DNA from: an uncultured Acetobacteraceae bacterium
GTDB lineage: Bacteria > Pseudomonadota > Alphaproteobacteria > Acetobacterales > Acetobacteraceae
Length of the DNA stretch: 42,583 bases
Direction: 5' to 3'
Assembly (NCBI GenBank): GCA_964247395.1
Contig: CAXTUK010000001.1
Location: 1-42,583, forward strand
The notes under the pieces were generated by a model. The model ran no database searches and was not told where the DNA came from. It saw only the letters and a list, made by a program, of their open reading frames with translations. Position 1 is the first letter of the stretch; each line of letters begins with the position of its first letter. The position numbers and the translations under genes are program-made. Shown piece after piece: positions 4,866 through 35,483 of the stretch.

Positions 4866-6142
4866 CTCGCCCGCGGGATCATCTTGAACTCGATGATCAT
4901 CGGGCCTCCGTTCAGCTCGACGGAGATTTCGCTGCCTGCGCCGTACCGTGCAACCGGGGAAGCGGCCCTCGCGGGATCGAAGAGCACGGCCCTGGCAAAC
5001 GGCTGGACGAAGCCGACCTTGACGCCGCGAGCGACCACCGGCTCGGCCCATAACACGAGATCGAAGATGCTGTCGGATTTCGTCAGCAGCAGGCTGCCGA
5101 CACCGGTCGGCCGGCCGGAGATGCTGATGACCGGCATTTCCTGGAAGCGAGGCAGGTCGCTGTAGCGTGGGGCGGTGTCGGCAAGGATCGACCGCAGATT
5201 GTGGATCGCCACCGCCGCGGGCCTGGGGGAGTTGTCGAGCCGGAACAGACCGAATTCCACGTCCTTGTTGCCGTCGCCCCGCTCGGGATAGGCGCTTCTC
5301 AGCTGATACAGGAAGACGCTCGAACATCCCTGACGCATGGCATCGAAGACGAGAGCGAGCGTCCGGCTCGCGGCAAGACCCGCCGCGTGGTCATCGGTGG
5401 ACGGGGTCGCGAATCCCGCCCTCGTGACGACTTTCGGCAATCTCTCGCCGAGGCCGGCGCTCATCGATGCGCGCGCCAGCGCGGAGGCGGGAGACTCGGC
5501 CCGATCAGGAAACACCTCGACCGATCCCGCGTCCGCGAGCTTCGGTTCCCTATCGAGGTCGACTTTCATTCCGCCGGTGAAGGAGTAGACGGCGACGGCG
5601 CCGATCCGCCGGTCCGCACTGGCGGCGAGGAACAGGTCGCGCTGCAACAGCGTGGCCCCGTTCTCGCCTTTGACGCCGTCGAACGACACCGGATGGCTGC
5701 CGATCTCGTCGGGACCCTCGACAGCGAAGATGGCGCCTGGATGGCCCGCCGCCAGATGGTCGACCTGCTGCAGCCCCCGCGCGGCTGGCTGCCTCCCGTC
5801 GAAGACGAAATCGAGACGGTTGCCGGCGGCGATGACCCGGTCGAGGGACGCCATGTAGTTCCTGTAGGGAACGCCTCCGTCCGGGTTCGGAACGATGTCG
5901 CGCAGCCGATGGATGCCCAGATAGTCGAGATCGGCGATCGCCTCCTCCACGTCGGCGTAGCGGCCATCGGTGAATTCGAGGTGGACGTTCACACCCATCG
6001 CGTCGAGGACGCGGCTGGCGGCCATGGAAACGACTTTGCCGTTCGCCGCCGCGGACGGGTCGGCCACGGCGGCGCCTCCCCAGCCGAGGACCGCCAGGGT
6101 GAGCAGCTTCGATGCAAGTCGTCTAGAGCCGGATCGTGCCAT
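4862..6142 (-). CDS. Secreted glycoside-hydrolase-like protein, paralog 1 of 3 (clan GH-A-like TIM barrel; predicted nucleophile position altered)
   Basis: The real start is at MARSGSRRLASKLLTLAVLGWGGAAVA (signal peptide; ATG 6140-6142). Shares the blocks MGVNVHLE, EGPDE, LPKVVTRAGF, FLYQLR and AIHNLRSILAD with ORFs 33139..34428 and 37281..38711. The first 135 codons of track ORF 4862..6547 are rejected. Confidence 0.7.
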   Translation of the reverse strand: MARSGSRRLASKLLTLAVLGWGGAAVADPSAAANGKVVSMAASRVLDAMGVNVHLEFTDGRYADVEEAIADLDYLGIHRLRDIVPNPDGGVPYRNYMASLDRVIAAGNRLDFVFDGRQPAARGLQQVDHLAAGHPGAIFAVEGPDEIGSHPVSFDGVKGENGATLLQRDLFLAASADRRIGAVAVYSFTGGMKVDLDREPKLADAGSVEVFPDRAESPASALARASMSAGLGERLPKVVTRAGFATPSTDDHAAGLAASRTLALVFDAMRQGCSSVFLYQLRSAYPERGDGNKDVEFGLFRLDNSPRPAAVAIHNLRSILADTAPRYSDLPRFQEMPVISISGRPTGVGSLLLTKSDSIFDLVLWAEPVVARGVKVGFVQPFARAVLFDPARAASPVARYGAGSEISVELNGGPMIIEFKMIPRAS

Positions 6143-7859
6143 CTCGGATCCGGTCGAGGTGGGCGTCGCACAGTTCGACGTAGGTGCCGAGTTCCCGATG
6201 ACGGAACCAGACCTCGCCCGCCGCGGTGGCGGACAGCCCATCCTGCTCGAGCGATCGCTTCGACAGCTTGAAGGTTCCAGTCCGATCGATGTGCGGGCAG
6301 AAGCGCAGGAACACCGGACGGGCATAGGGCGGCAGCCGCTCCTCCAGCATCTGCTGCAGCCGCGCGAGGTCGAAATCCTTGCCACGCGTGATCGCCGCCA
6401 TCCCGGCGCGTCCCTCGTGCCCTGGCACCACCACGCCATAGACGACGGTCTCGACGACGCCGGCGCACGAACCGACGGCCTCGGCGACCTCGGACGCCGA
6501 CACGTTCTCCCCCTTCCAACGGAAGGTGTCGCCGACCCGGTCGACAAAGCTGAAGAAGCCCGCTTTGTCCCGTCGCATCAGGTCACCGGTGCGGAACCAG
6601 AGATCTCCTTTGGTGAAGACATCCCGCAGCGTCTTGCGCGCGGAGGCGGCCTGATCCGTGTAGCCGTCGAAATGCCTGGCCGGCGCCGCCGCGTCGCCGT
6701 CGATGCGGCCGATCGCTTCGCCCGGCTCGTCGGTCGCGCAACGGACGCATCTGCCCTGCTCGTCGCGCACGGGCATGCAGGTCTCGGGATCCAGCCTGAC
6801 CAGCTCCGTCGCGAACCGATCCTTGAGAAAGGCCGGGATGCGCCCGATCGCTCCAGGCTTGCCTTCGCAGTTGTAGAGCGAGACGTTCCCTTCCGTTGCC
6901 GCATAGAACTCGAGGATTTCGGGCACCCCGAAGCGGTCCTGAAAAGCCTCCCAGACATCGCGACGCAACCCGTTGCCGCAACACAGCCGCAGGACATGCC
7001 TGGCTTCCGCCTGGCTTGCCGGAGCCGCGACCAGGTAGCGGCAGAGCTCCCCGATATACTGCACGATCGTACAACGGTTCTCGACGACGTCTTCCCAGAA
7101 CCGGTTGGCCGAGAAGCGTTCGCGGATCACCACCGACCCGCCGCGCGACAGGATTGCGCCGACCGCCACCACGCCGCCGACGCTATGATACATCGGAAGA
7201 CAGTTGTACAATCGGTCATCCGGCCGCGTGTCCATCAGACCGGCGAACCACAGGCTCCATTCCAAGATGCGCGCGTGCGTGACGTTGGCTGCCTTCGGCA
7301 AACCCGTCGTTCCCGAGGTCGCGATCAGCAGCGCGCGATCGGATCGCATCGGCCCGGGCACGCACGCCATCGGCGGCGGCAATTCGTCTTCGATCCGTCG
7401 CCGGTTCGTGCCCCGCCGCGCGCCGTGCACCGAGATTGTCGGTCCTGCCGGCAGATCCGGCATGATCGCCATCACACGCTGCAGCAGCGAGGCGGCGACC
7501 ACCATCCTGGAGGCACCCGTCGCGCGGATCGCGTGGGCGAGCGAGTGGCCCACCAGCAGCGTGTTGAGCAGCGCCACCGTGCAGCCGGCCTGCGCCAGAC
7601 CACACCAGATCGCCACGTAGCTCAAGCAGTTCGGCATCAGCAGACAGACCGTCTGGCCACGTCCCAGGTCGTTGGCGACCGCCCAGCCGGTGTAACGGTC
7701 CGCGAGCTCGACCAGCTCGCGGTAAGTGAGCCGTTCATCCTCGCCGACCAGTGCGGGGGCGTCGCCCCGGTCACGCGCGACCTCCCGAATCACCGAGAGG
7801 AGCGTCGTGACGCGCGGCTCCTCGAGCACCTTGATCGAAGTCAGCGCCCGCATCCACAT
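6123..7859 (-). CDS. FATP/very-long-chain-type acyl-CoA synthetase (ANL superfamily)
   Basis: Motifs IATSGTTGLPKAA, EFYAATEG, FRTGDLMRRDKAGFFSFVDRVGDTFRWKGENVS and TGTFKLSK. ATG at 7857-7859, with GAGG 8 nt upstream. The 3' end overlaps the next gene's start by 20 nt. Confidence 0.85.
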   Translation of the reverse strand: MWMRALTSIKVLEEPRVTTLLSVIREVARDRGDAPALVGEDERLTYRELVELADRYTGWAVANDLGRGQTVCLLMPNCLSYVAIWCGLAQAGCTVALLNTLLVGHSLAHAIRATGASRMVVAASLLQRVMAIMPDLPAGPTISVHGARRGTNRRRIEDELPPPMACVPGPMRSDRALLIATSGTTGLPKAANVTHARILEWSLWFAGLMDTRPDDRLYNCLPMYHSVGGVVAVGAILSRGGSVVIRERFSANRFWEDVVENRCTIVQYIGELCRYLVAAPASQAEARHVLRLCCGNGLRRDVWEAFQDRFGVPEILEFYAATEGNVSLYNCEGKPGAIGRIPAFLKDRFATELVRLDPETCMPVRDEQGRCVRCATDEPGEAIGRIDGDAAAPARHFDGYTDQAASARKTLRDVFTKGDLWFRTGDLMRRDKAGFFSFVDRVGDTFRWKGENVSASEVAEAVGSCAGVVETVVYGVVVPGHEGRAGMAAITRGKDFDLARLQQMLEERLPPYARPVFLRFCPHIDRTGTFKLSKRSLEQDGLSATAAGEVWFRHRELGTYVELCDAHLDRIRDGTIRL

Positions 7860-7918
7860 GTCCAGTGCCTCGCGCGCCGACCTTTGGCCGGCGGCGGCCA
7901 CGGAATGGCGCGAGCCGC

Positions 7919-8584
7919 TCAGGCCGCCAACCGGGGAACGCACCGGACCAGGAGATCCCTGAAGCCGACCCAGAGCGGCAGGACGCGGTCGTCCGGTCGC
8001 ATATGGCGGCTGAGCGCCCCATGACCCTGCTCGGGGTCGCTGTCGAACCTGACATGCTCGGACAGGAAATGCCGGAACGCGCGCAGCACGGCGTTGTCCC
8101 AGTCGGGCGCCGTCAGCATGGCCCTGAAGACGGTCTCCAATCCGCCATCCTCGTAGCTCGCGATGCTGTTGGCGCGTGTCGTCGCATCCAGCGACCGGGT
8201 GTCGTCGAGGTAGGCCTGTCCGGCGAACTCGAAGAACCTGGCCTTCTCCTCCTCGATCGGCAGAAGCGCCAGCGTGCGTCGCATGAACTCGTCATGGTTC
8301 ATCTTCTCGCCCGGCAGCGCCACGCCCGGCCATGGCGATAGATTGCTGGTGTCGCATTCCTCCTGCTCGAGCTGGCGGAGCTTCTCGTCGTGCGGGTGGA
8401 GGCTTCGCGCCACCTGCAGGCTTTCCCTGAACTGGACCGAGAAGTGGTAGTAGGCCCAGGCGGCGGCGACCATGTCGGTCGCTGTCGCCTCCCGCCAGTT
8501 CAGATCCCTGATCTCGTCGATGACCTGGGTGAATTCCAGTCTCTCGATGACGTCCACCGCACTCTCCATTTCCTGTTTGAACAT
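7919..8584 (-). CDS. Heme-oxygenase-like di-iron (HDO/CADD-like) protein, tentative
   Basis: 221 aa, all-alpha composition. By-eye alignment to the Chlamydia CADD ligand blocks: AWAYYHFSVQF (cf. DYYLHIKAF), LEQEEC...KMNHDEF (cf. MDEE..NHIDLW), ASYEDG (cf. YSYESQ), FLSEHVRFDSDPEQGHG (cf. FTEHEEADVRHA). The ATG directly abuts the upstream stop (8585-8587). Confidence 0.55.
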   Translation of the reverse strand: MFKQEMESAVDVIERLEFTQVIDEIRDLNWREATATDMVAAAWAYYHFSVQFRESLQVARSLHPHDEKLRQLEQEECDTSNLSPWPGVALPGEKMNHDEFMRRTLALLPIEEEKARFFEFAGQAYLDDTRSLDATTRANSIASYEDGGLETVFRAMLTAPDWDNAVLRAFRHFLSEHVRFDSDPEQGHGALSRHMRPDDRVLPLWVGFRDLLVRCVPRLAA

Positions 8585-10018
8585 TCAGTCGCCGATCCGG
8601 CTTCTGCCGATTTCCATCAGCAGACCAACCAGATCCAGGACATCCCGGGCCGAGGTCCGGCCGTTCGTGATGCACATCCGCACGACGTCACGGCCGCGAA
8701 ACCCGGCGCAGGAGACCCAGGCCCGGCCCGACGCGACAATGTCAGCGGCAATCGATCTCGCGTCGCGATATCCCGCCGGAGGAACCGCGCAGACGACCGC
8801 CATGCAGGACCGGTTCACGACCGTCCAGCCGCGCGCCGTCAACTCCAGCTTCAGCAGCTCTGCGAGATCGATCGCGCGTTCGAGGTGGTCGGCGTAGCCT
8901 CGCCAGCCGGCCACCGCCAGCGCCACGAACAACCGCAAGCCGAGAAAGCGCCGCGACCATTGCGTCGACACCATGTAAGGGTCATGCGCCTCGGTCGATG
9001 GCATGAAGCCAGCCTTCGTATGGAACGCCTCGGCGAGCACGCTGGCGTGTCGTGCGATGAACATGCCGCACGACATCGTCGTCGCGAACCATTTGTGGGC
9101 GTCGACCGTGACCGAGTCTGCATCCTCGATGCCAGAGAGCTCGGGAAGCAGCCGATCCGACGCGAGCAGCGAACCGCCCCAGGCCGCATCGACATGAAAC
9201 CAGAGTTTCCGGGCGCGAGCGATCTCGCCCAGATCGCGGAGCGGGTCGACCATCCCCGCGTTCGTCGTTCCCGCCGTGCCCACGATCATGATCGGAAAAC
9301 ACCCGTGCGCGACATCGGCGTCGATCGTCGCCGCCAGCGCTCCGCTGTCCATGCAGCCCGCATCGTCGCAACTGACCGTGGTCACCGACCCTCGCCCGAG
9401 CCCGGACTGATGCGCCGCCTTGAACCAGGCGAGGTGCGCGTCTTCGGAGACGTAGATCCTCGGCGATCCGTCGAACGCCCTCGCTCCTCGCGAGGCAAAG
9501 CCAGGATGAGCCCTGGTCATCGCGCAGACGAGCGCGGTGAAGTTCGCCTCCGACCCTCCGGTCGTGAAATGGCCGTTCGCGCCGGCCGGCATGCCTGCCC
9601 TGTCCGCGATGGCGCGGATCACGTGCGCCTCGATCGCAACCGGAACCGGCGACGTCGTGGCGCTTGCAAGCTGCGGATTGAAGGAGGCGACGATCCGCTC
9701 CGCGCATTCCGCCGGGAAGGCCGGTGCGGGATTGAACAGGCCGAAATACCGTGGGTGCGTCACCTGGACGATGCCGTGTTCGAGCTGATCGACCGTCCAG
9801 GCGAGCACATCCCGTAGCGCTCGCCTCGACGAGAAGTCGAAGCCTACGAGGTCCGATCGGAACCGAGCGAGTTCGACGGCGGCGCTCACGCGGCCGTCCG
9901 GAATCCGGCCCGACGCTTCGTCGAGCATCGCGTCGAGAAGGCGATTGACGCAATCGCGCTCCTGCGCCGAGGGAAACAGCGGCGCGATCAGCGCGGCCCG
10001 AGGCTCGCTTACGTTCAC
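8585..10018 (-). CDS. Group II (fold-type I) pyridoxal-phosphate-dependent amino-acid decarboxylase
   Basis: Motifs HFTTGGSEANFTAL, GTAGTTNAGMVDPL, HVDAAWGG and the PLP-lysine motif SVTVDAHKWF. Start re-assigned to GTG at 10016-10018, overlapping the metA-like stop (GTGA). The 24 upstream codons of the track ORF overlap metA. Confidence 0.85.
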   Translation of the reverse strand: MNVSEPRAALIAPLFPSAQERDCVNRLLDAMLDEASGRIPDGRVSAAVELARFRSDLVGFDFSSRRALRDVLAWTVDQLEHGIVQVTHPRYFGLFNPAPAFPAECAERIVASFNPQLASATTSPVPVAIEAHVIRAIADRAGMPAGANGHFTTGGSEANFTALVCAMTRAHPGFASRGARAFDGSPRIYVSEDAHLAWFKAAHQSGLGRGSVTTVSCDDAGCMDSGALAATIDADVAHGCFPIMIVGTAGTTNAGMVDPLRDLGEIARARKLWFHVDAAWGGSLLASDRLLPELSGIEDADSVTVDAHKWFATTMSCGMFIARHASVLAEAFHTKAGFMPSTEAHDPYMVSTQWSRRFLGLRLFVALAVAGWRGYADHLERAIDLAELLKLELTARGWTVVNRSCMAVVCAVPPAGYRDARSIAADIVASGRAWVSCAGFRGRDVVRMCITNGRTSARDVLDLVGLLMEIGRSRIGD

Positions 10019-11019
10019 GGCGCCAGGACCGGTATCGCGCCGGCATCCGCGAGCCACGCCGTATCGACGCGCGACGGATACGCATGGCACGCAGCGGCCC
10101 GTCGAGACCGGACCGTGTCGAGCCAGTTGGCGAACAACGCGACTGCCCAGGGTTTCGGCGCATCCGCCAGCCGCACGTCATCAAGGACGCCGAGCACTTC
10201 CACCAGCACCGCCTGCTCACGCTTGCCCGACCCTTCCTCCCGCAATGCGCCGAGCGCGGCCGCGGTCGGACCATCGAAGAGGTTGTCCGGCAACTCCGGG
10301 TAGTCACCCCTCTCGCCGAGGAAGAAGCGGCGCGCGTCCCTCCTGTACTCGGAGATCAGACACTCCGAATCGTATTCCGGGTGACCCTGCAGGAACAGGA
10401 ATTGTGCTCCGGTCTCCTTGGCGAAGATGTCCACTCCGCGCCCGACCGTCCTCGACACGATCTCGTAGCCGCACCCGGCAAGCTCCTGTTCGGCCAAGTC
10501 ATGATAGCGGGAGTGCGGGCTCTGCCATCGGTTCGGCAAGCCGGCGCTCAGGCGATGCCCGGACGCGACCAGACGCGATTCGAACAGTCCCGACGCCTTG
10601 GTCTCGAAACGACGCCGCGCCAGACCGTCCAGGTGCAGCACCGCCGCATGAGCGGCGAGACACGAGAAGATCGTCGGCACCGAATGGCTCTCGGCCCAGT
10701 CGATGATCGCCGTCAAACGCGGCCAGACCGGCTCATCGGACAGTCGCGCCGTGACAGGTTCCATACCGGTCAGGATCAGACCCTCGATCCCGGAATCGAA
10801 CAACTCGTCCGCATCGCGGTAGCCGTCCGCGCCGGCGCGTGCCGGGACAGCATCCAGTTCCCGACACCGGAACAGCTCGAGCCGGACGCCGGCGGGCGAG
10901 GCGCGGCCCAGCAGGTCGCGAAAGCATCGTTCCGTATTGCGCAAGGCGCGGCCGGATGTGTTGTTGACCAATCCGATGATCGGCCGATCCGTCGTGCGCG
11001 GTCGCGTCTGCCGGTTCAT
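10015..11019 (-). CDS. metA: MetA-family homoserine O-acyl(succinyl/acetyl)transferase, divergent N-terminus
   Basis: By-eye alignment to E. coli MetA: IEGLILTGMEP, catalytic-Cys block PTIFSCLAAHAA, PHSRYHD, His/Glu block FLQGHPEYD, and LFANWLD. The E. coli LNLMPKK block is replaced by GLVNNTSG. ATGA overlap with the metY-like stop. Confidence 0.8.
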   Translation of the reverse strand: MNRQTRPRTTDRPIIGLVNNTSGRALRNTERCFRDLLGRASPAGVRLELFRCRELDAVPARAGADGYRDADELFDSGIEGLILTGMEPVTARLSDEPVWPRLTAIIDWAESHSVPTIFSCLAAHAAVLHLDGLARRRFETKASGLFESRLVASGHRLSAGLPNRWQSPHSRYHDLAEQELAGCGYEIVSRTVGRGVDIFAKETGAQFLFLQGHPEYDSECLISEYRRDARRFFLGERGDYPELPDNLFDGPTAAALGALREEGSGKREQAVLVEVLGVLDDVRLADAPKPWAVALFANWLDTVRSRRAAACHAYPSRVDTAWLADAGAIPVLAP

Positions 11020-12350
11020 CGAGCGGCCGTCATCAGGTTCTCGTCGGTCTCACGCGCGGGTGCTGCCGCCTGACGGCCGACGGCGATGCCGAGCGCCCGA
11101 TCGAGATCGGCGACAATGTCGTCGACATGCTCGATGCCGATGCTCAACCGGATCATGTCCGCGGTCACGCCGGCCTTTCCCTGCTCGTCGGCCGACATCT
11201 GCCGGTGCGTGGTCGAGGCCGGGTGGCAGGCAAGCGACTTCGAATCACCCAGGTTGACGACCCTCTTGACCAGGCGCAGCGCGTCGTAGAACCGCACGCC
11301 GGCCGCAAAGCCGCCTTCGATGCCGAAGGCCATCAGCGAGCAGGGCCGGCCGCCAAGGTATTTCCCGACCAGCCCATGGTAGCGGTTGTCCCGGAACCCG
11401 GCATAGTTGACCCACGCGACGCGCGGGTCCCGGGCGAGGAAGTCCGCGATCCGTCGGGCATTCTCGACATGACGGTCGATCCGCACCGCGACCGTCTCGA
11501 TCCCCTGCAGCAACAGGAACGCATTGAAGGGCGACAGGGCGCTTCCGGTGGTGCGTAGGAAGACGCTGCGGCAGCGGGCGATGTAGGCCGCCGGCCCGAA
11601 ATGGTCGTTGTAGACCAGGCCGTGATAGGAACGGTCCGGCTCGCTGAACATCGGGAACTTCCCGGCCGTCGCCGCCCAGGGAAACTTGCCGCTATCGACG
11701 ATGGCGCCACCGAGCGTCGTTCCATGCCCGCCGAGGAACTTGGTCAGCGAGTGGACGACGATGTCGGCGCCGAATTCGATGGGCCGCGACAACATCGGCG
11801 TCGCCACGGTGTTGTCGACGATGAGCGGCACGCCGTGCCGGTGCGCCACGTCGGCCAGGGCCTCGATGTCGGCCACGTTCCCCGCCGGATTGCCGACCGT
11901 CTCGCAGAACACCGCGCGCGTTTGCGGATCGATCATCTTCTCGATGTCGACCGCGCCGTCGCTCCTGGCGAACTTGACGGTCACGCCCTGACTGGGGAAC
12001 AGGTGAGCGAAAAGCGAATGGGTGGTGCCGTAGAGCTGCGGGACGGAGACGACGTTCGTCCCGGGACTGACGACGTTGGCGACGGCGTAGTGCAGCGCAG
12101 ACTGACCGGACGCCACCACCAGCGCTTCGATCCCGCCCTCGAGTGCGCACACGCGCGCTTCCAGCACCGCGTTCGTCGGATTGCTGATCCGGCTGTAGCG
12201 ATGACCGTCCGTTTCCAGGTTGAACAGTGCCGCCGCATGCTCGGCGCTGTCGAATTCGTAGGCGACGGTCTGATGGATCGGTACCGCTAACGATCGCGTC
12301 GTCGCGTCTTTGTCGAAGCCGGCGTGGAGCGCGATCGTCTCGTTACGCAT
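11016..12350 (-). CDS. metY: O-acetyl/O-succinyl-homoserine sulfhydrylase family PLP enzyme (MetY/MetZ/CGS gamma-replacement fold)
   Basis: Motifs MRNETIALHAGF, YSRISNPT, PLIVDNTVATP, PLP-Lys block VVHSLTKFLGGHG, and NLGDSKSLACHPASTTH. 444 aa. Confidence 0.85.
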   Translation of the reverse strand: MRNETIALHAGFDKDATTRSLAVPIHQTVAYEFDSAEHAAALFNLETDGHRYSRISNPTNAVLEARVCALEGGIEALVVASGQSALHYAVANVVSPGTNVVSVPQLYGTTHSLFAHLFPSQGVTVKFARSDGAVDIEKMIDPQTRAVFCETVGNPAGNVADIEALADVAHRHGVPLIVDNTVATPMLSRPIEFGADIVVHSLTKFLGGHGTTLGGAIVDSGKFPWAATAGKFPMFSEPDRSYHGLVYNDHFGPAAYIARCRSVFLRTTGSALSPFNAFLLLQGIETVAVRIDRHVENARRIADFLARDPRVAWVNYAGFRDNRYHGLVGKYLGGRPCSLMAFGIEGGFAAGVRFYDALRLVKRVVNLGDSKSLACHPASTTHRQMSADEQGKAGVTADMIRLSIGIEHVDDIVADLDRALGIAVGRQAAAPARETDENLMTAAR

Positions 12351-12508
12351 AGGAGGCTGAACCCTGCCTGGCCGCCCTCGATCCGCCCATGACCGAACCG
12401 GTCTTCACGATCGCTGGTGTGACGGTATTTTGGACATGTTTGTCGTTATGCGACAATTAACCCGTTTGGACGCGGTCAAATGGTCTGCATCTTGCCCGTC
12501 CAGTGGGA
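12351..12508 (-). promoter_or_regulatory. AT-richer intergenic leader upstream of the metY-like sub-operon (probable internal promoter/operator)
   Basis: This is the only sizeable gap (158 nt) in the 4.9-19.5 kb minus-strand gene string. GC is visibly lower here, and it contains the 6-5-6 palindrome TTGTCGttatgCGACAA at 12440-12456. No consensus -35/-10 could be assigned. Confidence 0.35.
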
Positions 12509-13243
12509 TCAGGCCGTGTTCCCGGCGTCCACCGTCATCACGGTGCCGGTGATGTTCCGGGCCTTGTCGCTGAAGAGATAGTCCACGAGGTGCGCCACGT
12601 CGTCGATCTCGGGCATCCGTCGCAGCGCACTGCGCCGCTTGATCTTCTCCCGCTCCTCCGACGTGAGACTGTCGGTCATGTCAGTGTCGAGAAAACCGGG
12701 CGCCACGACGTTCACGGTGATCCCGAGCGGCCCGAGTTCGCGCGCCAGCGACCGCGTGAACCCGATCAGCGACGCCTTCGTCGCGCTGTATGCGGACATC
12801 CCGCTGTAACCGGTCGAACTCACGATGGACGAGATGTTCACGATGCGCCCGCCGGCTTGCCCGAGCATCGAACGCACCACGTGCCGCGTCAGGATCAACG
12901 GGGCCAGCGTGTTCAGCCGCACGAGGCTCTCGATCTCGCGGTCGGGCATGTTGGCGAGCACGCCGGCCGTGCCGAGGCCGGCATTGTTGACCAACCCGTA
13001 GATCGGACCGTGCGTCGCCTTCAGCGTCTTCACCAGGCCGGGCAAGCCGCCGGTGTCGGCCAGGTCGAAAGCCTTGAAATGCAACCTGCCTAGCGGCACG
13101 CCTTCGAGCTCCTGCCTCGCCGTCGTGAGTATCTCGCTGTCGCGGCGGGCGACCGCCACGACGTTGAAGCCGGACAACGCCAGCCTCCGCGCGATGCCGA
13201 GTCCGAGGCCCCGGCTGCCGCCGGTCACCAGCACATTACGCAA
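12509..13243 (-). CDS. Short-chain dehydrogenase/reductase, FabG (3-oxoacyl-carrier-protein reductase)-like
   Basis: Motifs VLVTGGSRGLG, NNAG, catalytic YSATK, and PGFLDTDM. Start re-assigned to TTG 13241-13243 (GGAG 7 nt upstream) or GTG 13232-13234. The longer track ORF overlaps the ligase gene. Confidence 0.85.
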   Translation of the reverse strand: MRNVLVTGGSRGLGLGIARRLALSGFNVVAVARRDSEILTTARQELEGVPLGRLHFKAFDLADTGGLPGLVKTLKATHGPIYGLVNNAGLGTAGVLANMPDREIESLVRLNTLAPLILTRHVVRSMLGQAGGRIVNISSIVSSTGYSGMSAYSATKASLIGFTRSLARELGPLGITVNVVAPGFLDTDMTDSLTSEEREKIKRRSALRRMPEIDDVAHLVDYLFSDKARNITGTVMTVDAGNTA

Positions 13244-14627
13244 GCGCGCGCTCCATCTTTCCCGACGGCGCGATCCCGAGACAGGCGACCTGTTCGATGA
13301 TTGCCGGCACTTCGTGGGCGGCGAGACTTCGCCGGCACAGATGCCGGACCTCGTCGCTGATCGCCGCCGGGTCGAGAACTCCGACATGGATGTCCTTGAG
13401 GACATATTCGGCGATTACGAGCGCGCCGGTGATCGGGCTTCGCCGTCCAGAGACCCGGGACATGAGAACCGCTTCGTGCTGGTTGATCACCGCCTCGACC
13501 GTTTCCGGACTGACCTTGCGTCCGCCGACATTGATCACCCCGCCGCGGCGCCCGGAAAAAAAGCATCGCCCGTCGCGGATCTCGATCAGGTCGCCGGTGT
13601 CGACGAAACCCCGCTCATCGGCGAGCTTCGGCATGTCCGCTCCAAGATAGCCCGTCGCGGCGCGGGGAGAGCGGATGCGCAGAGATCCGTCCTCGATGGC
13701 GAGATCGACGCCCTCGCCGCGGTATCCGATCAACGAGACCGGAAAGCCCGCTCGGCCGTCGCGAACGTCGAACGCGATGCCGGCTTCGGTGGAGGCGAAC
13801 GCATGTGCGATCTCGGCATCGGGGAAGGTGCGACGTAGGCCGTCCAGGATGGCCTGATCGGCGGCCTCTCCGGACAGTCGCAGATAGCGCGGCGACATCT
13901 TCGAGAGCGCGTCGCTCATCAGCGCTCGCCGCCAATGCGTGGGCGTGCCCGAAATGTGCGTGACACCGGACCTGCCCGCGCGAGCCAGGAAGTCGGACGC
14001 AGGTTCGCCATCGCCGGACAGGACGAGCGACCCGCCGCCAACCAGGGCCCGGATGAGGATCTGCAGTCCCCCGTAGCGGCGGACGTCGTAGAACGTGCTC
14101 CACACCTTGTGGTCGCCGGCGACCGCATCGGCGAGCGGTCCCGAGAGGCTCGAGAATGTATGCATGGCCAGCTTCGGAGATCCGGTCGAGCCGGACGTGA
14201 ACAGCACCCATTCGGTGTCGACGTCGCGTGCGATGGCGTCGGACATGGCGTCGAGCCGGTCGCTGCACGCCACCAGCTCCGCACGAAGCTGTCCGAACTC
14301 GGACATGTCGCCGTCGGTCAGGATGATCTCGCATGCCGCATCGGTCGCGGCTTGCGTCAGCTGGTTGCGCGTGATGCCAGGCGGACGGATCACTAATCGC
14401 GCGGCGATGCCGTCGAGGGCGGCCAGGGCGCAGATCGTCGGCATCTGCCTTGCCGTGGACAACATCACCGATTGGTCGCGGAACTCTTCGAGCGGCCGTC
14501 CAAGTCCGGATCCATCGGCGACCTCGTGCACCGCCAGCCGCATCTGCGCGTCGGCCACGAAGCTCTCGGGCCTGTCCGCCCGCGCGACCATCCGGTCCCG
14601 GAGCGAAGCGATCCTACGCGGCCGCAT
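13236..14627 (-). CDS. ANL-superfamily adenylating ligase (DltA-role / acyl-carrier-protein ligase candidate)
   Basis: Motifs WVLFTSGSTGSPK, AFASTEAG, FVDTGDL, GRRGGVINVGGRKVSPETVE and the C-terminal APSGK. Start is ATG 14625-14627 (14-nt overlap with the ACP) or ATG 14589-14591. Confidence 0.8.
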   Translation of the reverse strand: MRPRRIASLRDRMVARADRPESFVADAQMRLAVHEVADGSGLGRPLEEFRDQSVMLSTARQMPTICALAALDGIAARLVIRPPGITRNQLTQAATDAACEIILTDGDMSEFGQLRAELVACSDRLDAMSDAIARDVDTEWVLFTSGSTGSPKLAMHTFSSLSGPLADAVAGDHKVWSTFYDVRRYGGLQILIRALVGGGSLVLSGDGEPASDFLARAGRSGVTHISGTPTHWRRALMSDALSKMSPRYLRLSGEAADQAILDGLRRTFPDAEIAHAFASTEAGIAFDVRDGRAGFPVSLIGYRGEGVDLAIEDGSLRIRSPRAATGYLGADMPKLADERGFVDTGDLIEIRDGRCFFSGRRGGVINVGGRKVSPETVEAVINQHEAVLMSRVSGRRSPITGALVIAEYVLKDIHVGVLDPAAISDEVRHLCRRSLAAHEVPAIIEQVACLGIAPSGKMERALA

Positions 14628-14874
14628 CTTCGTATAGCCTGATGAAATCGCCAACCGTGACCGGGAATGCGACATCTTCGCCGGTCGAGAACGGATCAAG
14701 GTCCAACCGGTCATCCAGGCTCGCGACGATCACCGCGATGCAGAGCGAGTCCAGACCCGAATCGAGCAGACGAAGCTGATCGGACAAGGGTGCCAGACGC
14801 TTGTCCTGCTGCTCGGCGACACGGACGATCTCGCCCAGCACGATCGAGCGTATGGGGGTTGTCGGATTTTCCAA
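14614..14874 (-). CDS. Acyl/peptidyl carrier protein (phosphopantetheine attachment LDSGLDSLC)
   Basis: 4-helix-bundle-sized ORF with a DSL serine motif. I prefer the second in-frame TTG (14872-14874) because GGAGG lies 5 nt upstream. The track start at 14898 is also a TTG. Confidence 0.7.
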   Translation of the reverse strand: MENPTTPIRSIVLGEIVRVAEQQDKRLAPLSDQLRLLDSGLDSLCIAVIVASLDDRLDLDPFSTGEDVAFPVTVGDFIRLYEDAAA

Positions 14875-14894
14875 TTGGGCCTCCTGGGTCGGAA

Positions 14895-16544
14895 TCAACG
14901 AGAGGGTTCGTGGGCGCCGTCGGACGTCGTCGCCTGAAGGAAGCCGATCATTTGTCGGGCGGCGATCTCCCGCATCGGGCCGGTCGTCAGATCATGATCC
15001 AGTTCGTGGCTGACGCAGCGATGCATCCCGGGAAACGTCAGGAGCTCCTTGCCGGCTTCGCCGAAATGCCGGTCGAGAGCATCGAGGCCGGCGTCGCCGC
15101 CGCCGAACAGGAGCAGCGTCCTCACCCCACGCTCGGCGAGGTTTCGCATCCCGCGCCGCGCAGCGCTCCCCGGCCCCGGCCGGTCGACGCGAAGCGAGAA
15201 GCAGGGAAGATTGACCAGCAGCAAGTCGCTCACCCGCGTCTCGGCGAGCGCACCCTGCCACGCGTGATACGCACCCGAGCACAAGCCGTTCAGGGCGAAC
15301 CGGCGGAACCCTTGCCGCTCGAGTTCGTCGAGAGACGCTGCGATATCCGGTGTTCTGTCGACGGTGAAGACGTGGTTGCAGTCCTCGATCCCGTTCGAGG
15401 CGGCGGCCTCGCTGTCGCCGAGTCCGGCGAAATCGAACCTGAACGAGCAGATCCCGGCACCCGCCAAGCGTCTCGCGAACTCGACGGAAAATCGCGCGAA
15501 TCCGTGATGCGGGTCGCCGCCCGTGTTGGCGATCAGCACCACGCGGTCGCTGGCTGCGTCTCGTGGCCGGCACAGCATCCCGAACAATCGGCGTCGCTGT
15601 CCGAAAGGAACTGGAATTTCGACGCAATCCGCCGGACGTAAGGTGCGAGCAGGCAGCGTCGAGCGCGCCATGCGCCTCGTCACCACCGGCGCCAGGCGGT
15701 CTCGCAGCCAGGACAGGATCGGTTGCAGGTCGGCGGAGGGCTCGTCGGCCAGGTGGCTCGGCCGAAGGAAGCCTTCGAGACCGCTGAACGGCAGGCACGT
15801 GACGTCCGCGCCGCCGTCGCGCCAAGCCTTCCTGCATGCCGACAGGAGCGGCGACTCATACTGCGTGAACAGCGACACATGATCCGCGCCGGGTCGGACC
15901 TGCCGCAGGTCGAGTTCCGACAGTCTCTCCACCGTCTCGGCGGAGAGACTCAGTTCATTGAGTGTCACGCCACCCTCCGGCCGCGTCTCGACCGACGCCC
16001 GAAGCCGTGACTCGACGCTCAGCTGCGAGATGAACGATCGGCCGCGAAGCACCGGCTCCAGCATCACCAGACCCCGGACATCGTCCCTCGCGGCGGCGAC
16101 GATCGCGGCGAGCGTGGCGCCGAGCCTGAGCCCGACGAGAACCAGACTTTCCGCACCGCTCACGCGCCGCAGCCAGTCCGCGGCGGCCTGCACGTTGCCC
16201 TGCCAAGCCTCCCAGCATTCAGCGCCGTCGAGCTCGAGCGAGTCGCCGGTGCCCTCGTAGTCGAACCGCAGCGTCGGGTAGCCTTGCGCACCCAGCCCGT
16301 TCGCCAGTAATCGGAACTGCCGATGCGCGTTGCTCGCATCGCGACCGACGCCGGAGCACAGGACCACCGCGACATCCCCGGTCACAACATCCGTTGCCGG
16401 GTGATACCAACCGAAGCAGCCACCGAACGACACCGGCTCCATGCGCGGCATAATCGGGCGGATCGCGTCTGCCTCGTCTTGTTCGGGCAGACTCCGGAAG
16501 CCACCCGACACGTTCGCATTTCGGCTATCGGCGACGGTTGTCAT
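14895..16544 (-). CDS. Fusion of two alpha/beta-hydrolase-fold domains (non-canonical nucleophile elbows)
   Basis: 549 aa with two repeats of the pattern: VVLxxxG..., then F(D/R)FxGxGDS, then an elbow. Elbow 1 is VGLRLGA (Arg at the nucleophile position, codon 16125-16127). Elbow 2 is NGLCSGA (Cys, codon 15279-15281). Confidence 0.7.
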   Translation of the reverse strand: MTTVADSRNANVSGGFRSLPEQDEADAIRPIMPRMEPVSFGGCFGWYHPATDVVTGDVAVVLCSGVGRDASNAHRQFRLLANGLGAQGYPTLRFDYEGTGDSLELDGAECWEAWQGNVQAAADWLRRVSGAESLVLVGLRLGATLAAIVAAARDDVRGLVMLEPVLRGRSFISQLSVESRLRASVETRPEGGVTLNELSLSAETVERLSELDLRQVRPGADHVSLFTQYESPLLSACRKAWRDGGADVTCLPFSGLEGFLRPSHLADEPSADLQPILSWLRDRLAPVVTRRMARSTLPARTLRPADCVEIPVPFGQRRRLFGMLCRPRDAASDRVVLIANTGGDPHHGFARFSVEFARRLAGAGICSFRFDFAGLGDSEAAASNGIEDCNHVFTVDRTPDIAASLDELERQGFRRFALNGLCSGAYHAWQGALAETRVSDLLLVNLPCFSLRVDRPGPGSAARRGMRNLAERGVRTLLLFGGGDAGLDALDRHFGEAGKELLTFPGMHRCVSHELDHDLTTGPMREIAARQMIGFLQATTSDGAHEPSR

Positions 16545-16550: not shown

Positions 16551-17669
16551 CTATCCGATGTGACCGCAGCGATCCGCCAGCGCGGCCGGGTTCCTGCCGG
16601 CGAGTTCCGCTCGCAACCACTCGCCAAGTTCGCGGCTGTATGCCTCGGCGCCGTTCGCGTTGAAGTGCCAGGCATCGCCGAAGAACCTGTCCGGCCAGCA
16701 CGGGACCGCAGGCCCGACGACCCGGGTTCCATGAAAGCGCATGGAGGTCGCGCGGAGATAGTTGGCGACCTGCTCACCGACGCGTTTGGGAACGCGGTCA
16801 TAGCTGGCCTGATTGATCGGCATCGCCAACAGCAGGACCGGCACGCCGCGCTTGGCGAGCAGGCCGAGCGTCCGCGAGAGATAGAGATCGATCAACGGCG
16901 ATATCGACGCGTTGCCGGCCTTGACCTCCGTCGTGAGCTCGCTGGAGCCCGACGCCGTTCCGAACAGCGCGTGGCCGGAGGCGGACAGGCAGTCATGCAG
17001 GGCGCGCCGATTGTGCGCCCATCGGGCGGCGAGCCCGGCATTGACCAGGCTGTCGAAATAGAATCCCGGAAACCGGACCGCAAACAACAGATCGCGCACC
17101 ATCGGAGGAAGCTGGTCGCCTCGCCGCAACCGCTGGAGTTCGCGGTCGTGCAGGCGGCCCGCGTCGTCGTCGACCAGCCGCATGGCTCGCAGGCCGAGGA
17201 AACCTGTCCGGGCGCCGAAATTCCAGTAGTCCGGATCGGCGGTGAATTTGAGCGGGCCATGGGCGATGACGACGAGACGCGGCGGCGTCGGGCACCGCAG
17301 CGCACGGGACACCGCGAAGTAGGTCTCGATCGGACTGGTCCCGGACAGGGCGAAGTTCTTCACGGCGACCGGCATCACTCTCGGATCGATCGCGGCCAGC
17401 GTCCGGCTGTCGCCGAACACGGCGACGGAGCCGAGCTGACAGGCATCGAGCATCGTCCGTTTGGCGACCCAGAGCGGATAATCCCGGCTGAGGAAGGCCA
17501 TCGGTGCCGCCGCGACATAGATCCACGCCAGACCAAACAGGGCAACGAACGTGACGCCGAGCCACTCGAGGAAGCCCGGCGTCGCCCATCTGGTGGACCG
17601 GATCGAGCGAGCCGGCCGAGCCGTTTCGTCCTGATCCCCGGCGACCCGCAGCATGGTGGCATCGATCAT
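16551..17669 (-). CDS. Membrane-anchored SGNH-hydrolase-like protein (DltD/AlgJ-role O-acyltransferase candidate)
   Basis: N-terminal TM helix FLEWLGVTFVALFGLAWIYVAAAP, block I VAVFGDSRT (GDS) and C-terminal block V GDAWHFN (DxxH). Positioned directly after the MBOAT gene. Confidence 0.6.
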   Translation of the reverse strand: MIDATMLRVAGDQDETARPARSIRSTRWATPGFLEWLGVTFVALFGLAWIYVAAAPMAFLSRDYPLWVAKRTMLDACQLGSVAVFGDSRTLAAIDPRVMPVAVKNFALSGTSPIETYFAVSRALRCPTPPRLVVIAHGPLKFTADPDYWNFGARTGFLGLRAMRLVDDDAGRLHDRELQRLRRGDQLPPMVRDLLFAVRFPGFYFDSLVNAGLAARWAHNRRALHDCLSASGHALFGTASGSSELTTEVKAGNASISPLIDLYLSRTLGLLAKRGVPVLLLAMPINQASYDRVPKRVGEQVANYLRATSMRFHGTRVVGPAVPCWPDRFFGDAWHFNANGAEAYSRELGEWLRAELAGRNPAALADRCGHIG

Positions 17670-17682: not shown

Positions 17683-19245
17683 TCAGAACCTGAAATAGAG
17701 GAACTCGCTGGTTCCCCCGATCGCCAGGACGCCCAGGCAACCCATCGCGCCGATCACCATCGCCGAGGGCAGGTCCGGCCGCCAGACGAGGCGTTGCAGG
17801 CGGCCGGCCTGCACCTGGCCGATCGCCGGATGGAACAGACGCATCATCTGCTGGGTGTTCGGCATTCCCCAGACGATCGAGTACAGAACGGCAACCCAGA
17901 GGACATGGCAGGCCAGCGCGATGGAGGCGGCGTCCGGAGCGCCGCCCAGGATGTGGGCCGGGAGACCGACCGGGCCCATTCCATGCAGCCCGATCATGCC
18001 GGCCAGGAGGTCCAGGGCGTCCGGGACCGACGCTGCACGAAAGAACACCATCGCGACCACGGTTGCGATGTAGGTCAGCAGGACGTTGCCGGCACGGACC
18101 GACCAGCCCGCATCCGCGCTGCCCCGGCGGCGGCGCAGGATGCGAAACGCGTGATTGGTCGTGAGATAGATTCCGTGCAGGGCCCCGAAGACGAGGAACT
18201 GCAGCCCTGCGCCGTGCCAGACGCCAGCCAAGGTCATGGTCAGGATCGTCGGAAACGCGACCATGGTCGCGAACCCCGACGACGTGGCCTGCGCCGCCCT
18301 GGTGATACCAAGCCCGTTGCGGGCGCGCCACCTCGTGATCGCCATGGCCATCGGGCCATACACGTACGACGCGAGGTAACGCGACAACGTCATGTGCCAT
18401 CGCTGCCAGTGCTCGATGATCGAGGCCGCCTTGTAGGGGGAGTCGAAGTTCAGCGGGAACTTGACGTTGAACATCCGGGCCAGGCCGATCGCCATGTCGG
18501 AGTAGCCGGAGAAGTCGAAATAGATCTGCAACGAGAAGCAGAGCGCGGCGTTCCAGGCGGCAAGTAGCGGCAGATGCCCCGCGTCCCCGAAGCCGGCGCG
18601 GACGACCGGTGCAAGCGGGTCCGCAAGCAGGCATTTCTTCGCGAGCCCGATCGCGAAGATCGACAGCCCGACCGAGAAATCCTCGCGAGAGAACCGCCAG
18701 GTCCGCCGGTCGGCGAACTGCGGCATGATCTCCTGGTGATGCAGGATCGGACCTGCGATCAGGTGCGGGAAGAACGTCACGAACAGGACGTAATCCAGCG
18801 GGCTGCGGTCCTCGTTCAAGCCCTGCATCCTGTCCACCAGGTAGCCGATCTGCGTGAACGTGAAGAACGAGATCCCGAGCGGCAGGACGAGATCGGGCAG
18901 CGTCGCGTGGATCAGCCCGAGCCCGGTCAGCGCATGCACGACGCTCACCAGATACTTGAAGGCGAACAGTGCGGCGAGATTGACCGAGATCGCGCCGGCC
19001 AGGCAGGTTGCCTGCAAGCGAGGCCGAGATCGAACCGCTCCGATCAGTTCCGCCGACCCGTAGTTGAAGGCGATGGAAGCGCCCAGCAGAACCAGCGACG
19101 AGGGATTCCACCAGCCATAGAAGACCAGCGATGCCAAGACCAGCCAGGAAGCCGCCGCCACCCTTCCGCTGCGGCAGCACAGACGAAAGCCCACCAGGAC
19201 GCACGGCATGAAGAGGAAGATGAAAACGTAGGAGTTGAACAGCAT
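17683..19245 (-). CDS. MBOAT-family membrane-bound O-acyltransferase (AlgI/DltB type) with extra C-terminal TM helix ending in FLYFRF
   Basis: MLFNSYVFIFLF N-terminus, GISFFTFTQIGYLVD, FPHLIAGPI, YFDFSGYSDMAIGLARMFN, and the catalytic-His block IIEHWQRWHMTLS. 520 aa. Confidence 0.9.
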   Translation of the reverse strand: MLFNSYVFIFLFMPCVLVGFRLCCRSGRVAAASWLVLASLVFYGWWNPSSLVLLGASIAFNYGSAELIGAVRSRPRLQATCLAGAISVNLAALFAFKYLVSVVHALTGLGLIHATLPDLVLPLGISFFTFTQIGYLVDRMQGLNEDRSPLDYVLFVTFFPHLIAGPILHHQEIMPQFADRRTWRFSREDFSVGLSIFAIGLAKKCLLADPLAPVVRAGFGDAGHLPLLAAWNAALCFSLQIYFDFSGYSDMAIGLARMFNVKFPLNFDSPYKAASIIEHWQRWHMTLSRYLASYVYGPMAMAITRWRARNGLGITRAAQATSSGFATMVAFPTILTMTLAGVWHGAGLQFLVFGALHGIYLTTNHAFRILRRRRGSADAGWSVRAGNVLLTYIATVVAMVFFRAASVPDALDLLAGMIGLHGMGPVGLPAHILGGAPDAASIALACHVLWVAVLYSIVWGMPNTQQMMRLFHPAIGQVQAGRLQRLVWRPDLPSAMVIGAMGCLGVLAIGGTSEFLYFRF

Positions 19246-19527: not shown

Positions 19528-19774
19528 TCGACGACGCGCGTGACCATCGCCCTGCGGCTCGGGACGCCCGGGGCAAGTCGTGAACCTACAATCCCGCGCC
19601 GAAAATCAGAATCATCAGAAAGGTCAGGGTTGAGTGAAGCGAGGCCGAAGCGCCGCTGACCGGGATGTCGGCGATCAGCCTTTCGGCCAAGCCCAAACAT
19701 CGAGCTTACCATTCGGCGACAAACGACTAACGTCTGGCCCGCGGACTGGCGCGGGCGCAACAGGGAGGCTCCTG
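19528..19774. promoter_or_regulatory. Divergent intergenic region (carrier/MBOAT operon leftward, GT4 genes rightward) with nested inverted repeats
   Basis: 247-nt gap. GCCGAAA (19598-19604) pairs with TTTCGGC (19681-19687), and GGTCAG (19622-19627) pairs with CTGACC (19656-19661). The distal ~100 nt are homologous to the leader of the second GT4 copy. GGGAGG RBS at 19763-19768. Confidence 0.35.
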
Positions 19775-22294: not shown

Positions 22295-22361
22295 GCCACT
22301 GGAGTTGCTCGGTCCGCTTTCCGACGAAATCAATGAAGAAGCAGGCGTCCTCACAGCATGA
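21156..22361 (+). CDS. Family-4 glycosyltransferase, tandem copy B
   Basis: 401 aa. Identical to copy A through the central/C-terminal core and diverged at the first ~85 and last ~22 residues. Its stop overlaps the gmd start (ATGA 22358-22361). Confidence 0.85.

Positions 22362-34479: not shown

Positions 34480-35483
<1,004 letters not shown>

Follow-up and report, generated by a model that had tools for sequence, protein, structure and literature searches.

In a 42,583-nucleotide stretch of DNA from an uncultured Acetobacteraceae bacterium (contig CAXTUK010000001.1 of assembly GCA_964247395.1; the window refers to this whole stretch), five consecutive minus-strand genes encode a MetY-like pyridoxal 5′-phosphate (PLP) enzyme, a MetA-like homoserine O-acyltransferase of the HTS family, a PLP-dependent decarboxylase, a 221-aa protein of predicted heme-oxygenase-like (HO-like) fold and a FATP-type ligase. 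Our analysis indicates that these genes are part of an accessory set conserved in Alphaproteobacteria of acid soil, peat and lichens, and not of housekeeping methionine synthesis, and that in the window they form the distal half of a single minus-strand operon array of 11-12 genes, which extends from 17683-19245 down to 6123. The set most likely builds a modified homoserine-derived building block. Our overall reading is that the array makes a carrier-bound product that is esterified onto the exopolysaccharide (EPS) by a route of the MBOAT-SGNH kind (MBOAT, membrane-bound O-acyltransferase), and we consider it evenly balanced between right and wrong.

Five coupled genes and their products

The five open reading frames (ORFs) show the codon-position GC pattern of real genes in a window of ~67% G+C (0.67). 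Together with the leader that precedes them, they are:

11016..12350, minus strand: MetY-like PLP enzyme of the O-acetylhomoserine (OAH) sulfhydrylase family, 444 aa (PF01053, TIGR01326)
10015..11019, minus strand: MetA-like homoserine O-acyltransferase of the HTS family, 334 aa, fast-evolving (PF04204)
8585..10018, minus strand: group II PLP-dependent amino acid decarboxylase, 477 aa (PF00282; GTG start, the longest ORF reaching 10090)
7919..8584, minus strand: 221-aa protein of predicted heme-oxygenase fold, a candidate metal-dependent oxygenase of a divergent DUF3050-related branch (HamA/MgoB type), placed by predicted fold and relatives
6123..7859, minus strand: FATP-type (very-)long-chain acyl-CoA synthetase, 578 aa (NF006134; 606 aa with an alternative GTG start at 7943)
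12351..12508, minus strand: intergenic leader preceding MetY, 158 nt (partly conserved motif at 12468-12453; perfect palindrome at 12456-12440)

The tight coupling that the initial annotation had described was found at every junction. MetY and HTS share an ATGA overlap at 11019-11016, HTS and the decarboxylase share a GTGA overlap at 10018-10015, the decarboxylase TGA (8587-8585) abuts the ATG of the 221-aa gene (8584-8582), and the stop codon of that gene (7921-7919) is followed by a 59-nt gap to the ligase ATG at 7859, with a GAGG at 7871-7868, 8 nt before that ATG. Overlaps of 4 nt were also found at the orthologous loci L001 and L003. Family models bore out four of the five enzyme assignments directly (MetY-like, MetA-like, PLP decarboxylase and FATP-type ligase), and the fifth, the 221-aa protein, had to be approached through its fold and its relatives.

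The MetY-like protein scored 404 bits against PF01053 (cut-off 27) and 587 bits against TIGR01326 (cut-off 495), passing this subfamily model of O-acetylhomoserine sulfhydrylases, and stayed below every equivalog cut-off (for example NF004757, 637 vs 790). Its best match in the PDB was the OAH sulfhydrylase 7kb0 (475 bits), while Fub7 scored 420 bits. The PLP-lysine motif SLTKF..GGHG is kept in 57 orthologues, whose mean pairwise identity of 0.71 makes this the most conserved protein of the set. For the C-C or C-N bond formation that had been proposed for it, we found nothing specific, and the enzyme resembles an ordinary O-acetylhomoserine sulfhydrylase, with ~70% identity among copies and TIGR01326 passed.

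Mean pairwise identities in the set are uneven, with MetY at 0.71, the other genes at 0.54-0.59 and HTS at 0.40. The MetA-like protein passed PF04204 (151 bits, cut-off 27) and fell below the NCBIfam equivalog cut-offs (NF003776, 286 vs 358; TIGR01001, 111 vs 495; NF047918, 93 vs 460). Its residues C120, H213 and E215 align to the catalytic C142, H235 and E237 of E. coli MetA and are invariant in 56/56 orthologues despite the mean identity of 0.40. K141, R171, Y216, E224 and R227, which we take to be homoserine-binding residues, are conserved as well. Judging from this rate of change, a shift to another acyl donor is possible.

The decarboxylase scored 177 bits against PF00282 (cut-off 27), and its motifs GGSEAN, DAAWGG and DAHK are conserved among orthologues. 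Its best NCBIfam match was the 2,4-diaminobutyrate (DABA) decarboxylase model NF052646, at 166 against a cut-off of 900, and it remained far below the other substrate-defined models (PanP, 126 vs 606; MfnA, 92 vs 299; GAD, 32 vs 380); the best PDB matches were DesA (178 bits) and then DABA decarboxylases. The distal ligase matched PF00501/PF13193, carries the ANL P-loop TSGTTGLPK, passed NF006134 (PRK08279) with 668 bits against a cut-off of 625, and aligned to human FATP2 over residues 18-565 with 381 bits, all of which agrees with its FATP-type identity.

The 221-aa protein had no Pfam (E ≤ 10) or NCBIfam match, gave chance matches only in sequence and profile searches of the PDB and was not on record in an exact-protein look-up. 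Its family comprises ~2,300 sequences in a set of 5.8 billion proteins, which form only 229 clusters at 50% identity and are all labelled hypothetical; a profile search with distant members, with the best 120 matches listed, extended it only from 2279 to 2348 sequences. An AlphaFold (AF2) model built from 46 sequences reached a pLDDT of 89.5, and the best 40 Foldseek matches to it were all HO-like, at weak scores (E 0.014-0.6, TM 0.28-0.55). The top ones, with E 0.014-0.8 and TM 0.37-0.55, include PolF, CADD/CT610, HamA, a TenA-like protein, PqqC, AetD, BesC and UndA. Eight family members that are 26-32% identical to the window protein pass the DUF3050 gathering score, and these match the window protein at phmmer E values of 1e-9 to 1e-21, so that its link to DUF3050 is transitive only.

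Residues E54, E76, N81, H97, Y125, E145, H177, D181 and H188 are conserved across the family; down to 26% identity, three histidines (H97, H177 and H188) and the acidic residues E54, E76, E145 and D181 are kept, with H177-x3-D181 on one helix. An early guess at the ligands, H172-x3-E176-H177, was rejected, because conservation of H172 and E176 breaks down in distant members. DUF3050 belongs to the heme-oxygenase clan, is modelled on CADD with a conserved set of di-iron ligands (PMC4520260) and includes MgoB (PMC3298696). For HamA, an HO-like enzyme of the DUF3050 type, one study reports oxygenation of valine while it is attached to the carrier domain of HamD, together with a single bound iron and binding of 2-oxoglutarate (PMC12522199). 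HamA is the closest characterised relative of the 221-aa protein. Of the HO-like di-iron call made at first for this protein, the HO-like part is supported at fold and superfamily level by the predicted structure and the DUF3050-passing relatives, albeit with weak scores, and a di-iron site is plausible from the conserved residues.

An accessory gene set in Alphaproteobacteria

A scan of one genome per species gave 174 genomes with a relative of the 221-aa protein, and in the 80 best of these we counted the neighbors of the 221-aa gene by tblastn with the window proteins. Almost all of the 80 are Acetobacteraceae (Acidisphaera, Acidisoma, Lichenicoccus, Rhodopila and Acidocella), Xanthobacteraceae, Methylobacteriaceae or Rhodomicrobium, and most are metagenome-assembled genomes (MAGs). 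The numbers of loci, out of 80, with each gene beside the 221-aa gene were:

MetY: 57/80
HTS: 56/80
Decarboxylase: 48/80
Carrier protein: 39/80
ANL ligase: 35/80
Short-chain dehydrogenase/reductase (SDR): 32/80
FATP ligase: 30/80
Double hydrolase: 15/80
DltD-like gene: 11/80

MetY and HTS both flank the gene in 55 of the 80 genomes, and the decarboxylase does so too in 45 of those 55. This co-occurrence is far beyond chance. The layouts vary, with MetY on the same strand as the 221-aa gene in 31 loci and divergent in 24, and all eight genes are present in 19 of the 48 loci that have full flanks. The eight genes make up a self-contained island in L085, a Rhodopila chromosome, and in L086, which has transposases upstream of it. 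A search of PLSDB plasmids gave no match. Two separate copies are found within single genomes (L025/L060 and L020/L041), and one copy, L087, has decayed, its MetY being truncated to 126 aa.

The reciprocal view came from a metagenome scan seeded with an alignment of the MetA-like protein, which confirmed at least 537 loci, 39 of them (≥6 kb) analyzed for context. MetY adjoins HTS in 38/39 of these, the FATP ligase is present in 26/39, at least one of carrier protein, ANL ligase and SDR in 24/39, and the decarboxylase in 19/39, in two identity classes of ~55-59% and ~38-44%. The 221-aa gene was found in just 3 of the 39 loci and in 0/11 of those with full flanks. Two loci without it, L116 (230-898) and L137 (3298-4182), carry directly before the carrier protein a gene for a PF14518 'iron-containing redox enzyme', which scored 37.6 bits in L137 (above the cut-off) and 27.2 bits in L116 (just below). 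We rejected the L116 protein as an orthologue of the 221-aa protein, as hhalign shows no relation, and the PF14518 protein looks like a non-orthologous replacement in the oxygenase slot. Because a different HO-like family fills this slot in L116 and L137, an oxygenase of HO-like fold appears to be a functional requirement of the pathway.

The wider core of the set is therefore not the five genes of the window but MetY-HTS with carrier protein, ANL ligase and SDR and with the FATP ligase, while the oxygenase slot and the decarboxylase vary; within the wider cluster family the FATP ligase also counts among the variable members. The initial annotation had treated the five genes as the functional unit, a boundary that does not hold, since the genes beyond the leader, for the carrier protein, ANL ligase and SDR, track the five more closely than the MBOAT gene does. 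Some variants add a gene resembling class II aminoacyl-tRNA synthetases (aaRS), an acyl-CoA-dehydrogenase-like gene, a cupin or ABC exporter genes.

A search of the whole window against Rfam, and a permissive search of the leader (E ≤ 10), gave no match, including no S-adenosylmethionine (SAM) riboswitch, and a SAM or other riboswitch in the leader was accordingly dropped. We conclude that the MetA-like and MetY-like genes are very probably dedicated copies, because their linkage is conserved in many layouts, single genomes hold two copies, some copies are transposase-flanked or decayed, no Rfam match is present and the evolutionary rates are uneven. The proposal of a dedicated pathway distinct from housekeeping methionine synthesis, for which co-conservation in related genomes was one test, has thus gained considerably from the neighborhoods of the 80 genomes (MetY and HTS in 55/80, with the decarboxylase in 45), their varied layouts, the duplicates and the transposase neighbors.

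A Dlt-like module and the proposed pathway

Upstream of the five genes the array contains, in order, genes for the MBOAT, a 372-aa protein, a double hydrolase, a carrier protein, an ANL ligase and an SDR:

17683..19245, minus strand: putative DltB-like MBOAT membrane acyltransferase (PF03062; TIGR04091 below cut-off)
16551..17669, minus strand: predicted DltD-like SGNH-type protein, 372 aa, with an N-terminal membrane helix (motifs, Foldseek)
14895..16544, minus strand: double alpha/beta-hydrolase, a fusion of hydr2_PEP-like and hydr1_PEP-like parts, 549 aa (TIGR03101 and TIGR03100, both below cut-off; Pfam Hydrolase_4)
14614..14898, minus strand: small carrier protein, ~80 aa, TTG start region, presumably an acyl carrier protein (invariant GLDSL serine motif)
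13236..14714, minus strand: ANL (AMP-forming) ligase, in the position of DltA but not DltA-like (PF00501/PF13193)
12509..13405, minus strand: FabG-like SDR (PF00106), with the real start probably at ~13250-13280

The MBOAT scored 69 bits against PF03062, above the cut-off, and 159 against TIGR04091 (LTA_dltB), below the cut-off of 375, suggesting a DltB-like protein and not a DltB. The 372-aa protein had no Pfam match and no sequence match in the PDB. Its residues G86-D87-S88 and D332..H335 (GDS and DxxH) are invariant, and the top five Foldseek matches to its AF2 model (pLDDT 87.4) were all DltD structures (E 9e-6 to 8e-4, TM ~0.42), which shows, at the level of the model, a DltD-like fold. 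In the double hydrolase, TIGR03101 matched at residues 41-176 (92 bits vs 203) and TIGR03100 at residues 319-445 (93 bits vs 168), and the ligase_PEP_1 model scored 65 for the ANL ligase and 101 for the FATP-type ligase against a cut-off of 592; no exosortase gene was seen in the window. The GLDSL serine motif of the carrier protein is invariant in 38 orthologues, and its gene always lies directly before that of the ANL ligase, whose best PDB matches were weak (45-60 bits), with an unnamed AMP-dependent ligase followed by benzoate-, MenE- and 4-hydroxybutyrate-CoA ligases. The SDR scored 178 bits against PF00106 and 207 bits, below the cut-off, against TIGR01830.

The window as a whole is an EPS locus, with a Wzx-like flippase, two family 4 glycosyltransferases (GT4), two GDP-mannose dehydratases, a Wzy-like protein, a Wzz/tyrosine kinase, a Bac_transf priming transferase and a LuxR-type regulator. 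Other polysaccharide loci, organised differently, also carry the gene set (L001, L003, L087, L073, L036, L092 and L137): in L073 the 221-aa gene lies directly before the MBOAT, DltD-like and hydrolase genes, L092 adjoins Wza, Wzc and an epimerase, and L137 adjoins a GT4 and AsnB. The earlier idea that the five genes make the cargo of the neighboring MBOAT system gains indirect support in its genomic context, because the 372-aa neighbor appears DltD-like and the set recurs in polysaccharide loci of unrelated layout.

In the pathway that we propose, the MetA-like enzyme, whose catalytic triad is intact, would O-acylate homoserine, and the MetY-like enzyme would replace the acyl group at C-gamma. 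The default nucleophile would be sulfide, giving homocysteine, because the enzyme is a conservative O-acetylhomoserine sulfhydrylase. The group II decarboxylase could then strip the alpha-carboxylate from this amino acid or a derivative to leave an amine, and the HO-fold protein, by analogy with HamA, may oxidise a substrate that is possibly carrier-bound. The ANL ligase would load a carboxylic acid onto the carrier protein, the FabG-like SDR would reduce it there, and the FATP-type ligase may activate a long acid, fatty or otherwise, that goes into the same product. From the fusion of the set to a DltB-like MBOAT, a DltD-like protein and the double hydrolase in an EPS locus, it follows that in this window the carrier-bound product would most likely be exported and esterified onto the polysaccharide through the MBOAT/DltD-like pair.

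In its most specific form, the proposal is of a widespread pathway of soil Alphaproteobacteria in which a homoserine- or homocysteine-derived, decarboxylated and oxygenated acyl or amine unit is built on a dedicated carrier protein, with a new HO-like subfamily acting on the carrier-bound substrate, and is then esterified onto the EPS by a DltB/DltD-type pair; no earlier Dlt-like system would have had a cargo-making branch of its own; so detailed a version we regard as doubtful and put forward tentatively.

Several observations weigh against esterification of a carrier-bound product onto the polysaccharide. In most copies of the set (for example L085, L086, L004 and L116), neither an MBOAT nor a DltD gene occurs within 8-10 kb, and the surroundings are not a polysaccharide locus. 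The 221-aa gene itself is an orphan in unrelated contexts in 16 of the 80 copies, with no common neighbor among these 16. The carrier protein scored 13.5 bits against PF00550 (E 0.086), below the cut-off of 20.8, and no DltA was found among the PDB matches of the ANL ligase, which is not DltA-like. The chemical steps past family assignment are inferred from sequence. A further weak point is that a decarboxylated homoserine unit would have no carboxylate for carrier loading, which leaves the link between the two branches unexplained unless the partner bears a second carboxylate; possibly, such a carboxylate comes from a larger nucleophile or acyl partner, or a ligase or hydrolase forms an amide bond.

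The main competing explanation, a minority possibility that deserves to be taken seriously, is that the product of the set is no polysaccharide substituent but a small molecule or lipid, either free or exported. It could be, for example, a propylamine that is N-acylated and N- or S-oxidised and serves as metallophore, signal or membrane aminolipid, with some resemblance to fragin or valdiazen of the ham and pvf clusters; the Dlt-like fusion would then be a lineage-specific add-on. We take PvfA of the pvf cluster to be an HO-like oxygenase of the DUF3050 type, and the closest characterised HO-like relative of the 221-aa protein acts in a diazeniumdiolate lipo-amine pathway. The eight-gene islands of L085 (with a thioesterase, a major facilitator superfamily transporter and a cytochrome P450 nearby) and L086 stand away from polysaccharide genes, ABC exporter genes follow L116, L004 adjoins copper-resistance genes, the DltD-like gene and the hydrolase are present in only 11-15 of the 80 loci, and a fatty-acid ligase of the FATP type is part of the wide core, all of which would suit such a product. 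However, the window genes form one tight array with the MBOAT and DltD-like genes in an EPS locus, and the set has a polysaccharide context in seven or more independent layouts, some of which lack an MBOAT and have Wza/Wzc or GT4/AsnB as neighbors. Nor is the set accompanied by any conserved gene for a condensation enzyme or an N-acyltransferase.

Another possibility, the chemistry that the initial annotation leaned towards, is that the MetY-like enzyme makes no homocysteine but uses a larger nucleophile for a gamma-replacement of the C-C, C-N or C-S(R) type, in the manner of Fub7, CndF and LolC. The result would be a non-canonical amino acid with a second carboxylate left for loading onto the carrier, and candidate nucleophiles are a beta-keto acid bound to carrier or CoA, a mercapto-acid or an amino acid. 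Such chemistry would explain thioester carriage after decarboxylation and why MetY-HTS is constantly partnered by an ANL ligase, an SDR of ketoreductase type and a fatty-acid ligase; the score of Fub7 is nearly equal to that of true sulfhydrylases (420 vs 475 bits), and the MetY-like protein misses all equivalog cut-offs. We nevertheless find this chemistry unlikely, as the MetY-like protein is the most conserved of the set and passes TIGR01326, no active-site change was identified in it, and we know of no precedent for a carrier-bound nucleophile in such a gamma-replacement.

That the two proteins are simply the methionine (homocysteine) enzymes of the organism, in an incidental position, is very improbable: both keep all catalytic residues and match methionine-pathway families, but the same partners are linked to them across more than 100 loci in many layouts, single genomes hold two copies, one copy is transposase-flanked and another decayed with a truncated MetY, HTS evolves much faster than its neighbors, no Rfam match such as a SAM riboswitch lies upstream, and both proteins are below equivalog cut-offs. 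Sulfinate chemistry of the homotaurine or hypotaurine type, a 1,3-diaminopropane hydroxamate siderophore, a route of the dimethylsulfoniopropionate type, a signal like an acyl-homoserine lactone and a 3-hydroxybutanoyl substituent of the EPS were also considered and not adopted, as no evidence supported them.

Known systems and further features of the locus

Literature searches for this gene combination found no description of it. All of its parts are known enzyme classes and the transfer module is of the known MBOAT-SGNH kind (PMC12148441), while the HO-like subfamily is new. The array is like DltABCD and the other MBOAT-SGNH pairs (PatA/PatB, AlgI/AlgJ/X; PMC12148441) in having a putative DltB-like MBOAT, a partner of predicted DltD fold, and a carrier with an AMP-forming ligase in an envelope-polymer locus. 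It differs from Dlt in its Gram-negative alphaproteobacterial host, in being an EPS locus, in a ligase unlike DltA and in the addition of an SDR, a double hydrolase and a six-gene cargo branch; moreover, the carrier protein, ligase and SDR are far commoner without an MBOAT than with one. With the direct-sulfhydrylation pathway to methionine (MetA and MetY), it shares the same two families, adjacent and translationally coupled, with the Cys-His-Glu triad and the PLP lysine intact; unlike that pathway, the pair stands in an accessory cluster that is sometimes duplicated or transposon-flanked, has no Rfam match and a highly divergent HTS, and comes with a carrier protein and ligases, in many cases also with a decarboxylase and an oxygenase.

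Compared with HamA and MgoB of the ham and mgo clusters (PMC12522199, PMC3298696, PMC4520260), the 221-aa protein has in common the HO-like helical fold, as predicted, and distant relatives that pass DUF3050; a carrier-tethered substrate is reported for HamA, and the 221-aa gene is often immediately followed by those of a carrier protein and a ligase. In contrast, DUF3050 does not detect the window protein, its partner is not a nonribosomal peptide synthetase or an AurF-like N-oxygenase, and its ligand-like residues (H97, E145, H177, D181 and H188, plus E54/E76) are spaced differently.

The exosortase-A (PEP-CTERM/EpsH) set (TIGR03098-TIGR03101) likewise combines an ANL ligase, a carrier, a PLP decarboxylase and two alpha/beta hydrolases in EPS loci, and by best NCBIfam matches the window hydrolase is a fusion of its hydr2 and hydr1. 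The window proteins, however, score well below the family cut-offs and no exosortase was seen beside them in the window; the decarboxylase of the exosortase-A set belongs to a PLP decarboxylase group other than group II, and the set is itself uncharacterised. In butirosin biosynthesis (BtrI/J/K/O/V/H/G), the (S)-4-amino-2-hydroxybutyrate side chain is made from a carrier-held amino acid that is decarboxylated by a PLP enzyme and oxygenated, and the omega-amino-acyl group is moved to a sugar. The likeness is one of logic alone, and the enzymes are not homologous beyond general classes: in the Btr pathway the ligase is of the ATP-grasp type, the decarboxylase belongs to group IV and the oxygenase is a flavin monooxygenase, and a MetA/MetY step is absent. 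Fub7, CndF and LolC have the same Cys/Met-metabolism PLP fold and use O-acetylhomoserine, as the bit score of Fub7 reflects, but the window protein is nearer to bona fide sulfhydrylases; to our knowledge, these three are fungal pathway enzymes with no MetA-like partner in their clusters.

The set is abundant: relatives of the 221-aa protein number over 2,300, species-level genomes 174 or more, and metagenomic loci of the MetA-like gene 537 or more. Two cultured isolates carry it, Acidisphaera sp. S103 (GCA_009765975.1, cluster on LMUJ01000059) and Acidisoma sp. L85 (NZ_LMUQ01000024), so it is directly testable. If our reading is correct, it would give a handle on EPS decoration in bacteria that dominate acidic peat, forest-soil and lichen habitats, define a new branch of HO-like oxygenases beyond current Pfam models, and assign the MetA/MetY pair a second role outside methionine synthesis.

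Two of the variant loci (L092, 5633-6622, and L162, 312-1235) carry truncated class II aaRS-like genes (tRNA-synt_2b core, E 1e-5 to 4e-5, below the Pfam cut-off) that adjoin MetY or the carrier protein and resemble amino acid:carrier-protein ligases. The biological role of such ligases is listed as unknown, and if the aaRS-like genes in this carrier context do belong to that family, they may give a lead on its role (PMC9437257).

The sixteen orphan copies of the 221-aa gene (L035, L040, L042, L046, L048, L052, L056, L058, L059, L064, L072, L075, L076, L080, L082 and L084) have neighbors such as an integrase, a penicillin amidase, a luciferase-like monooxygenase and a caspase-domain protein, and a single MAG, MFD05521.bin.1.111, holds four of them. 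In L004, a Rhodopila contig (1-5900 and 14900-15400), the four-gene core is bordered on one side by genes for a copper P-type ATPase and a MerR-type regulator and on the other by a multicopper-oxidase fragment, and an insertion sequence element also lies in between; the copper-gene setting could be incidental or a hint of a metal-related role.

The leader upstream of MetY was at first described as AT-rich, and it is so only mildly, with a GC content of 0.57 overall and 0.48 in an 81-nt core against 0.67 for the window. A scan of the leader for sigma-70 promoters and terminators gave no consensus and nothing above chance. A 16-nt motif, CTTTCGGATGAATTGC, sits at -105 to -125 before MetY in ~11 orthologous loci, and the window copy, CAAACGGGTTAATTGT (12468-12453, minus strand), ~118 nt before the MetY start, matches it at 10/16 positions and is nearest to the copy in L017. 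The motif runs into a perfect palindrome, TTGTCG-cataa-CGACAA (12456-12440), and the two together (12440-12468) may be an operator or an internal promoter element.

At its other end, the array runs past 6123 into an ORF at 4862-6142 (minus strand, 426 aa), which overlaps the 3′ end of the FATP-type ligase gene by 20 nt, appears to be co-transcribed with it and encodes a signal-peptide-like N-terminus; this ORF matched no Pfam family and had no counterpart at any related locus. Elsewhere in the EPS locus, the two GDP-mannose 4,6-dehydratase genes (22337-23446 and 34480-35484, plus strand) suggest a deoxyhexose of the fucose, rhamnose or perosamine type in the polysaccharide. The tandem GT4 genes (19634-20980 and 21024-22361, plus strand) encode proteins with 90% identity whose central ~300 aa are identical, the result of either a very recent duplication or an assembly artefact.

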